The notes below the pieces were generated by a model. The model saw only the letters and a list, made by a program, of their open reading frames with translations. It did not search any database and was not told the origin of the DNA. Both the position numbers and the translations under genes were made by a program. Positions 9,506 to 10,637 of a stretch of DNA of 39,495 nucleotides are shown one piece after another; within the stretch, counting starts at the first letter, position 1, and each line of letters begins with the position of its first letter. The DNA is from a virus (Duplodnaviria > Heunggongvirae > Uroviricota > Caudoviricetes), in IMG/VR virus record IMGVR_UViG_2695420897_000008; one strand, written 5' to 3'.

Positions 9506-9532
9506 AAAACAAAAAACCCGCCAAGTGGCGGG
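9506..9532 (-). terminator. Rho-independent terminator closing the AT-rich moron operon
   Basis: Minus strand reads CCCGCC-ACTT-GGCGGG followed by TTTTTTGTTTT. Confidence 0.7.
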
Positions 9533-9553
9533 TCTACAGGAACAACTCTAAGT

Positions 9554-9724
9554 TTATTTTTTCTGTTTAAAATTGTCCAACTCAGGTTCTTTAACGCTTT
9601 CTGTCATGTAATCCAATCCACCAAAAGGTACTTCAAGCATTATACTGCTTTCATAATCAGCCATGGATTGCTCTGCTTGCGTTAGCTTGCTTTGCTGTGA
9701 GTTGTCATTATTTGATGTTGTCAT
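9554..9724 (-). CDS. Hypothetical small hydrophilic protein, 56 aa (third gene of the moron)
   Basis: ATG 4 nt after the stop of 9728-10282 (probable translational coupling); AT-rich like its neighbours; below the 60-aa cutoff of the ORF track. Confidence 0.4.
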   Translation of the reverse strand: MTTSNNDNSQQSKLTQAEQSMADYESSIMLEVPFGGLDYMTESVKEPELDNFKQKK

Positions 9725-9727
9725 CAA

Positions 9728-10282
9728 CTATGCCTTATTTATCAAAAGAAAAGTAACCGATAATATGAAAAAACCGAAAGATAACGCAATTCCTTCAAAA
9801 AGATAACGAGCGTAAACTGCCTTTTCTTTATGAAGACTTTCGATCAATTCAACAGCTTTACCATACTGAAACATATGGTATCTAAGCGTTTTAATTTTAT
9901 CACCGTAAAATAAAAAATCATGCTCTTCTTTTCGCTTATGAATAGGCATTTTTGGTATATCTTTCAGTCCCCAAGTACGCCATAGGAAAAAAAAGCACAT
10001 AACAATACAAACAAAGCACAGATATGCACAAAGTATAGATAATGTTAAAAACCAATTACTCTTTAGCCCACTTTTGAAATCAACAGTCCCAAATACAGCC
10101 AGTAGAGCAGAGGTTTCTACAGCTAAAATAGCAAGAAGGTAGTTAACTTTGTCCTCAAGACGACGATATGTTGATTTTGCTTCCTCATATCTATCTTTAT
10201 AATATGACGAAATAAAATCAGCGCCTATAGTCTCAATTGCCTTTTGTTCTTCTGTTGTATCTATTGACGAACGCTTGCTCAT
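9728..10282 (-). CDS. Hypothetical integral membrane protein, 184 aa, about 3 TM helices (moron)
   Basis: AT-rich ORF inserted between tail and baseplate genes; hydrophobic stretches at about residues 47-68, 77-101 and 160-180. Confidence 0.6.
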   Translation of the reverse strand: MSKRSSIDTTEEQKAIETIGADFISSYYKDRYEEAKSTYRRLEDKVNYLLAILAVETSALLAVFGTVDFKSGLKSNWFLTLSILCAYLCFVCIVMCFFFLWRTWGLKDIPKMPIHKRKEEHDFLFYGDKIKTLRYHMFQYGKAVELIESLHKEKAVYARYLFEGIALSFGFFILSVTFLLINKA

Positions 10283-10289
10283 TTCTCAA

Positions 10290-10637
10290 TCAACCAACAA
10301 CTTTCTTACACGGGAAAGAGCCAATAATTTTCGGAGCATCCATGCTGTTCTGCAACAACTGGACGTTCAGGAAACGCGTTTTAGTGCCAGGTCGATGGAT
10401 ATACTCGAACCCATAATTGTTGCCATCTTTGGCAGGCATCAGGTCCATTTTGATCTGCATGCCTGTACCGTCTTTACCCAACATTTTTACTTTTTGGGAC
10501 GTTACTGTTTCGCCATTGATTTTAAATAATGAATCAGGGATCGCATCCATACGAAAGTTGCCGCATTGCATCGTTATGGTGTTTGCACTTACACCAACAG
10601 ACACTAATGCCAGCAATGAAAATATCCATCGTTTCAT
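10290..10637 (-). CDS. Hypothetical secreted (periplasmic) protein, 115 aa, signal peptide MKRWIFSLLALVSVGVSA (moron)
   Basis: Start trimmed to ATG 10637 (AGGA RBS), which removes the overlap with the upstream tail gene; two Cys in the mature part; 7 nt upstream of the membrane-protein gene. Confidence 0.6.
   Translation of the reverse strand: MKRWIFSLLALVSVGVSANTITMQCGNFRMDAIPDSLFKINGETVTSQKVKMLGKDGTGMQIKMDLMPAKDGNNYGFEYIHRPGTKTRFLNVQLLQNSMDAPKIIGSFPCKKVVG

Follow-up and report, generated by a model that had tools for sequence, protein, structure and literature searches.

An exchangeable membrane protein and microprotein gene pair, a candidate defence module, in the baseplate operon of a SEN34-like Escherichia coli prophage

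The accessory genes found between the baseplate hub and baseplate spike genes of an E. coli prophage form two units: a gene for a predicted periplasmic protein (ORF A), and a pair of genes for a membrane protein and a microprotein (ORFs B and C) that fill a slot between the end of A and a hairpin preceding the spike gene. Gene A, the B–C pair and the phage backbone recombine independently of each other, and the exchangeable cargo consists of B–C only, as an inseparable pair. Sequence comparisons suggest that B–C might be a membrane effector with its microprotein regulator, carried by the prophage as an abortive-infection or toxin-like defence module; we hold this reading tentatively, at somewhat less than even confidence.

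Gene order, composition and terminator of the accessory region

The region lies in a window of 39,495 nt (IMG/VR record IMGVR_UViG_2695420897_000008) and was 99.9% identical, in a comparison of E. coli genomes, to a prophage in E. coli O103:H2 12009, ETEC H10407 and other strains. The closest isolated phage was Salmonella phage SEN34 (genus Brunovirus). The prophage adjoins yfhH and, according to its RefSeq annotation, combines a lambda-like set for regulation and lysis (Q antiterminator, lambda-family holin and endolysin, with a further lysis gene downstream) with the contractile-tail genes of a myovirus, whose baseplate is Mu/E217-like. Transcription on the minus strand runs through the tape measure gene, two baseplate genes, the hub gene, A, B, C and the hairpin to the spike gene and more baseplate genes. 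The features of the region were as follows:

10640..11704, minus strand: baseplate hub gene, 354 aa, backbone gene to the left of the accessory region (phrog_196 baseplate hub, E 7.8e-89; Pfam E217_GP41, E 6.8e-5; GC 0.543)
10290..10637, minus strand: ORF A, 115 aa, predicted Sec-exported small beta-barrel protein (PHROG match, E 2e-51; GC 0.425)
9728..10282, minus strand: ORF B, 184 aa, predicted inner-membrane protein with three transmembrane (TM) helices (phrog_18554, E 8e-128; GC 0.337)
9554..9724, minus strand: ORF C, 56 aa, acidic microprotein (phrog_18231, E 2e-41; GC 0.363)
9504..9535, minus strand: intrinsic-terminator hairpin (9514–9535) and U-tract from a consensus scan (nine pairs; dG -20 kcal/mol, z -3.8 against shuffles)
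8739..9491, minus strand: baseplate spike gene, 250 aa, right backbone flank (Pfam spike N-terminal domain, E 6.7e-44, and GpV Apex motif; membrane-puncturing spike protein in RefSeq)

Because A, B and C each matched a PHROG family of the same length and were also annotated in RefSeq, they are genuine genes and not chance ORFs. ORFs on the opposite strand were judged spurious, as conservation fell on the minus-strand genes. The genes are closely packed, with gaps of 2 nt between hub and A, 7 nt between A and B, and 3 nt between B and C. GC content was 0.373 over positions 9506–10637 compared with 0.527 in the spike gene and 0.543 in the hub gene; the deviation from the flanks (0.53) was evident in B (0.34) and C (0.36) and only mild in A (0.425).

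An earlier note, made from the sequence alone, had read this stretch as one AT-rich, tightly coupled insert of three genes with a strong terminator of its own. Much of that description was confirmed: the positions and sizes of the genes (115, 184 and 56 aa), their tight coupling and AT-richness, the signal peptide of A, the three TM spans of B, the hydrophilic nature of C, the hairpin itself, and the general picture of accessory, non-structural genes inside a tail/baseplate operon with predicted periplasmic, membrane and cytoplasmic products. Two points did not hold. The three genes are not a single insert, as A-like genes adjoin the hub in relatives lacking B–C, and the terminator does not belong to the insert, as each of the relatives examined carries this hairpin ahead of its spike gene regardless of cargo. 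What lies between A and the spike gene resembles a moron, as defined by Hendrix and Juhala, in comprising extra genes of deviant composition between otherwise neighbouring genes, but not in bringing its own terminator, the hairpin being common to all cargos and genera examined.

The hairpin reads GACCCGCC-ACUU-GGCGGGU, followed by the U-tract, and ends approximately 12 nt upstream of the spike start codon. A common CCCGC(C)-loop-(G)GCGGG-T6 hairpin closed the 110 nt preceding the spike start codon at 15 loci, which together represent eight cargos. The loci derive from E. coli, Salmonella (SEN34), Klebsiella (K. aerogenes), Serratia and metagenomes, and the DNA to the left of the hairpin was unrelated among them. 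This conservation before the spike gene, irrespective of what lies upstream, indicated that the hairpin is the fixed right-hand border of the slot and is not borne by the insert. An Rfam search of the region returned only sub-threshold, leader-like matches, which were caused by the terminator.

A lineage-conserved secreted protein beside a variable slot

ORF A carries a Sec-type signal peptide at residues 1–18 (MKRWIFSLLALVSVGVSA|N) and two invariant cysteines (Cys25 and Cys110), and its product would be an exported, disulfide-bonded, small beta-barrel protein of the periplasm. Its sequence was found in 283 of the approximately 307 genomes with this phage backbone among 5426 complete E. coli genomes. 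Beyond E. coli, A comprised 386 protein clusters across Enterobacterales, including Escherichia, Salmonella, Klebsiella, Raoultella, Serratia, Photorhabdus, Dickeya, Pantoea and others. It occurred without B–C in SEN34 and at four further loci (L003–L006), and near-identical copies were found in prophages whose slot held instead a DUF2335 membrane protein, a 192-aa protein with a YafO toxin, a secreted protein of 121 aa or an oppositely oriented gene. Conservation across the lineage independent of B–C means that A is not part of the B–C unit; it is an accessory gene kept lineage-wide directly after the hub, separate from the cargo.

No Pfam, NCBIfam or PADLOC family matched A. A possible identity as a PliC/MliC lysozyme inhibitor was rejected: neither family HMM matches nor motifs were found, and the identity of 6–13% reflected generic, fold-level similarity, at which avidins and Cap15 scored as well as or better than PliC/MliC. 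The conserved motifs of A are its own (LMPAxDGNNYGF and FLNVQLLQ). The idea that A is a constant companion of B-like genes was likewise abandoned, as the lipoproteins encoded beside such genes in Serratia and at locus L016 were not homologous to A and the other contexts had no exported neighbour. That a strongly conserved, putatively periplasmic protein should be encoded amid the genes of a baseplate is a separate question in its own right.

In contrast to A, B–C was rare. The flanks were common to 307 of the 5426 E. coli genomes, and the entire 1.4 kb was present in only 21. B–C itself occurred in 29 genomes, nearly identical in 21 and as an allele of 64% identity in the other eight; this allele is intact yet unannotated in strain IAI1. 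Approximately 90% of the E. coli prophages of this lineage lacked B–C and carried unrelated cargo in its place. B formed only 12 clusters among 5.8e9 proteins, had no relative in a scan of one genome per species and was encoded by no deposited phage genome.

The earlier note had suggested looking for the same cassette at the equivalent position in related prophages. All 14 IMG/VR contigs with B had the order hub, A, B, C, spike. Identities along these contigs were mosaic. At one locus (L025), B and C were 98% and 96% identical to those studied here and A and the spike protein only 66% and 68%; at another (L027), the hub and spike proteins were 96% identical compared with 67% for A, 52% for B and 43% for C; and at a third (L033), A was 94% identical and B 50%. 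The identities of B and C co-varied, and C lay immediately downstream of B at every locus examined. Alleles of the pair had diverged to 36–50% identity within this one slot and phage lineage. Variants with a disrupted B and an intact C were found (a frameshift at L033 and the P0006 cluster) and the reverse was not seen, in what were small numbers.

The slot, measured between the stop codon of A and the start of the spike gene, was compared at 76 IMG/VR loci retrieved with an alignment of A. It was 321–2355 bp long, was empty at none of the 76 loci and held at least 18 gene architectures, among them the following:

A protein of approximately 250 aa, then a HEPN-domain protein (Pfam HEPN, E 1.6e-4): 24 loci
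B–C types: 15 loci, at four of which B was only 26% identical and was paired with a C-like ORF of 65 aa
A 192-aa protein and YafO (RefSeq annotation): 8 loci
A TM protein with a Mu-F-like Cys-rich domain: 7 loci
A homologue of the validated defence gene PD-Lambda-1 (PADLOC, E 4.4e-84): 1 locus
Further cargos: DUF2335, secreted proteins, Ant/KilAC-like genes and several proteins lacking an assignment

In many cargos, 90–180 nt of non-coding DNA followed A; with B–C, none did. As a functional clue for B–C, the toxin and defence genes in the slot are only suggestive, because the slot also holds secreted-protein and Ant/KilAC-like genes.

The membrane protein and its microprotein partner

Three hydrophobic spans were found in B (residues 46–69, 75–106 and 160–184). 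The positive-inside rule predicted that the N-terminus and the loop at residues 102–159 are cytoplasmic and that the C-terminus is periplasmic. An AF2 model (pLDDT 80.5) showed a bundle of long helices (residues 21–66, 77–104 and 129–183). Invariant features of the family were a juxtamembrane N-terminal helix (YxxRYxExKxxYRRLEDKxN), Glu56 and Ser58 within the first TM helix, and a PxMP loop.

The earlier note had stated that none of the three proteins resembled a recognised family and had proposed remote-homology and structure searches. The statement stood for A and C against Pfam, NCBIfam and PADLOC; for B, weak but repeated matches to PADLOC models of PycTM were obtained. B itself matched one such model weakly, at E 2.6e-4 over residues 31–140, an alignment extending beyond the TM helices, and the CBASS 2TM effector model at 7e-3; other members of its family matched three PycTM models (best E 5e-5). 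A B-family profile run against 1.84 billion representative sequences retrieved 78 proteins, approximately 70 of them distant (E 1e-14 to 1e-3), of similar length and matched end to end. Of 73 distant relatives scanned, 21, 14 and 11 matched the three PycTM models (best E 1e-8), and a few matched CBASS 2TM, CARF-TM or RT-SLATT effector models. Part of the PycTM score of B may derive from TM composition. The Pfam PycTM family (PF18967) matched neither B at E ≤ 1 nor its family and relatives, apart from a precomputed match of one relative marked 'faint'; B had no Pfam or NCBIfam assignment, and its distant relatives were likewise unclassified by Pfam. Matches of the B family to Pfam 8xMP were too weak to be retained (best E 0.019), and the literature on 8xMP was not relevant. 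The structure searches gave nothing significant: Foldseek with the B model found no match in PDB or BFVD at E ≤ 1e-3, only generic long-helix matches at E > 0.1, and a profile search of the B relatives against PDB sequences returned no meaningful match. These comparisons weakly suggest that B is related, remotely and in a non-canonical way, to membrane effectors of the PycTM-like kind.

In Pycsar, PycTM serves as the membrane effector, impairing the membrane upon binding cCMP, according to the passages of two later articles (PMC11224242, PMC12489823) that draw on Tal et al. 2021. No cyclase was annotated in the prophage, where B is surrounded by the hub gene, A, C and the spike gene, or beside the distant B relatives. 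As no cyclase is present in the prophage, a place for B in a Pycsar system was rejected, and B–C is not such a system.

ORF C, which is probably translationally coupled to B, encodes a hydrophilic protein (pI 4.3) with neither a hydrophobic span nor a signal peptide. It has a conserved core, YExxIMxxVPFGxLxxxTES, followed by a Lys-rich end, was seen only beside B, and matched no Pfam, NCBIfam or PADLOC family. C-like counterparts accompanied the distant B-like proteins in all eight contexts that could be retrieved, as an overlapping or adjacent ORF of 34–53 aa in six (one missed by the gene finder) and as an in-frame C-terminal tail in two. Moreover, approximately 11 of the 73 distant representatives had C-terminal tails of 45–80 aa. 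These C-like segments were hydrophilic, with a mostly acidic start, the motif [P/G]-x-h-x-h-h-[T/S/L]-[E/N/Q]-[S/N/G] and a basic end; examples are FGGLDYMTES…KQKK (C in this prophage), PQLQIVTESY…NRKK, VPDVEVCLES…KDKKD and SPNLQYVTEG. The occurrence of the same two parts in split and in fused form is Rosetta-stone evidence from sequence that the B-like and C-like parts function together.

The positive-inside rule, by placing the C-terminus of B in the periplasm, also implies that the fused C-like tails would lie outside the cell. Free C lacks a signal peptide, yet the C-terminus of B is predicted to be periplasmic, an arrangement that sits awkwardly with a simple cytoplasmic-antitoxin model.

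The contexts of the distant B-like proteins included a Type ISP restriction enzyme with a UvrD helicase, cargo beside Tn7-like TnsB/TnsC/TniQ, a DNA methyltransferase neighbour, a phage with an Acb2/Tad1-like gene, and a region with RelA_SpoT and Panacea. Such neighbourhoods are typical of defence or mobile DNA.

Candidate roles and relation to known systems

Under the effector reading, B would permeabilise or depolarise the membrane, and C would hold B in check or gate it. Infection by another phage, or loss of C, would release B, which would then collapse the membrane and abort the infection. This reading draws on the effector-type family signal of B, the strict pairing of B with C, the company that the pair keeps in the slot and elsewhere, and the finding that the disrupted variants all retained C and had lost B.

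The earlier note had seen in the membrane and periplasmic products the architecture of superinfection exclusion or receptor masking, and had compared them with T4 Imm/Sp. Several of the same observations bear on superinfection exclusion that does not kill the cell, in the manner of T4 Imm/Sp, HK97 gp15 or Cor/Llp. Here B, with C as its cofactor, would keep an incoming phage from delivering its DNA or inserting its tape measure, and A would mask the receptor or inhibit the wall-degrading activity of the incoming tail. The independent assortment of A and B–C leaves no obligate trio for such a scheme. No Pfam or PHROG similarity to Imm, Sp, SieA/B, gp15 or Cor was found, and the failure of the B model to match any PDB or BFVD entry at the Foldseek threshold gives no fold relation to exclusion proteins. 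The only family signal of B is to cell-killing effectors, and the toxin and defence cargo in the slot favours an effector or toxin module over a passive block to entry. In addition, B-like/C-like pairs reside outside phages, in defence islands and Tn7 cargo, and there would be less reason there to keep out a cognate phage. We consider exclusion unlikely.

A selfish toxin–antitoxin pair would stabilise itself or the prophage by addiction and have no anti-phage role. The 3-nt gap between B and C (overlaps in relatives) and their strict co-occurrence, the YafO-type and HEPN-type toxin modules found in the same slot, the restriction of disrupted variants to B, and the rare and patchy distribution of the pair would all suit such a role. 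However, the divergence of B–C alleles to 36–50% identity in one slot and one lineage suggests long-term retention under selection and not transient selfish spread, and the validated defence gene PD-Lambda-1 occupies the same slot. A purely selfish role thus seems distinctly improbable. Toxin–antitoxin and abortive-infection roles can coexist.

Expression provides the main weakness of all models in which the lysogen is protected. On the coding strand upstream of A or B, a consensus scan gave no sigma-70-like promoter, and a relaxed scan yielded nothing above 8/12 matches, such as that at 10767–10739 inside the hub gene. With no promoter found, and with only 7 nt separating A from B and 2 nt separating the hub from A, the three genes may simply be expressed with the late operon and only late, which would be a poorer fit to a defence role. 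Late transcription, antiterminated by Q, would read through the conserved hairpin, and a Q-family antiterminator is encoded by the prophage. In a lysogen, the hairpin would stop transcripts derived from the cargo before they reach the baseplate genes.

The packing of A, B and C behind the hub in the late operon with no separate promoter, and the nature of B as a small multi-TM protein, would also suit a late lytic helper acting on the envelope of the producing cell, either in holin/antiholin-like lysis timing or in keeping progeny off debris, but this is the least probable of the readings, given that lysis is already provided for in the prophage by a lambda-family holin, an endolysin and a lysis gene downstream, that approximately 90% of the E. 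coli prophages of the lineage carry unrelated cargo instead, and that B-like pairs also occur outside phages. B was specifically rejected as a phage holin, having no holin-family match in Pfam or PHROGs; a separate lambda-family holin adjoins the endolysin.

The abortive-infection or toxin-like reading of B–C could extend beyond this prophage. The pair might represent a widespread two-component membrane module, a PycTM-like three-helix effector with an 'h-x-h-h-T-E-S … Lys-rich' microprotein (sometimes a fused tail), that provides anti-phage defence free of nucleotide second messengers on prophages, Tn7-like elements and defence islands, and the slot might be a new defence hot spot; this wider proposal is possible but doubtful. 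If B–C is a defence module, a PycTM-type effector controlled by a tiny protein and not by a cyclic nucleotide would add a minimal sensor–effector design to the known repertoire.

Searches of the literature found no description of the A, B and C genes or of the slot. Neither PADLOC, Pfam and NCBIfam nor the searchable literature contained a PycTM-like protein without a cyclase, a conserved microprotein partner with a TES motif, or a slot with these borders; a phage hot spot with accessory cargo, and a membrane effector, are familiar in kind. B is similar to PycTM in size (ca. 165–185 aa), in its membrane helices, in the weak matches of B and its relatives to three PADLOC PycTM models, and in that B-like genes are also found on mobile elements and in defence islands. 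It differs in having no pyrimidine cyclase, no PF18967 match and, as partner, a microprotein of 34–57 aa, so that no cyclic-nucleotide signalling is implied.

HK97 gp15, T4 Imm/Sp and the cor/llp lipoproteins are tail-operon morons that exclude superinfecting phages. The region studied here resembles them in placing accessory genes of deviant composition, with inner-membrane and periplasmic products, in a structural operon before a terminator. In contrast, sequence and fold similarity to them was not found, nor was an own promoter; the terminator belongs to the backbone, and the family signal of B is effector- or toxin-like.

Defence hot spots have reportedly been described in temperate phages and their satellites (P2/P4; Rousset et al. 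2022). The slot is similar to these in its fixed position between conserved genes and its many mutually exclusive modules, which include known defence or toxin genes, and differs in belonging to a SEN34-like lineage and in its order of hub, secreted protein, slot, terminator and spike within a late baseplate operon. With a conserved secreted-protein gene and a terminator as its borders, and with a PD-Lambda-1 homologue, HEPN and YafO genes and many unclassified genes inside, the slot could be mined in the same manner as the P2/P4 hot spots.

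Diverged and broken copies of ORFs B and C

A diverged allele of ORF B (3-TM membrane protein) and ORF C (acidic microprotein) was found intact in E. coli IAI1 (locus L035, 2231-2937, corresponding to about 2730903-2731609 of NC_011741.1), where B is 176 aa and C is 59 aa in length. It is flanked by an A-like gene on one side and the spike gene on the other, and the RefSeq annotation places no feature in this interval. This allele, 64% identical, is carried by eight complete E. coli genomes. Elsewhere, B was frameshifted through single-base indels beside an intact C, both in the related locus L033 (at about 4466; IMG/VR 2558860444_000015) and in E. 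coli 2000-3039 (NZ_CP101302.1; B-family protein cluster P0006). The reverse combination, a broken C with an intact B, was not seen in this small sample.

A homologue and a possible distant paralogue of the secreted protein A

SEN34_20 of Salmonella phage SEN34 (L002, 3569-3802) is a homologue of ORF A, the secreted protein kept across the phage lineage. It is annotated as 77 aa with a start that falls within the domain; a full 113-aa frame with a signal peptide is present at this position, sharing 61% identity over residues 1-113 (tblastn). In the prophage of E. coli strain P4, the exchangeable slot following A itself holds a gene for a 121-aa secreted protein (L006, 1656-2021, minus strand), which has the same layout as A, comprising a signal peptide, a Cys-Gly towards the N-terminus and a Cys towards the C-terminus. 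Its similarity to the A profile was full-length and weak (hhalign E 0.006), and judging from sequence the protein may be a distant paralogue of A.

Other segments of the window

At 3687-4240 and 4268-5666, a pinE-type invertase that RefSeq marks as frameshifted adjoins oppositely oriented alternative genes for tail-fibre C-termini and tail-fibre assembly. The arrangement, at one end of the prophage, resembles an invertible segment for host range that is probably inactive. In the replication module, a second AT-rich gene (35719-36348, minus strand; GC about 0.32-0.39) is flanked by the genes for a DUF2815 protein and DNA polymerase, both on the other strand. Its product is a further membrane protein of moron-like character, 209 aa long, with a single hydrophobic helix at the N-terminus and several more towards the C-terminus; it had no match in Pfam or PADLOC.

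Other cargo in the slot

The most frequent slot cargo, present in 24 of 76 loci, was a gene pair in which a protein of ~250 aa is combined with one that has a HEPN domain. At another locus (L106, 3848-5266; IMG/VR contig 3300047656_000063), the slot encodes a 409-aa protein with a Pfam T5orf172/MUG113 assignment, which matches the validated defence gene PD-Lambda-1 (PADLOC, 4.4e-84).
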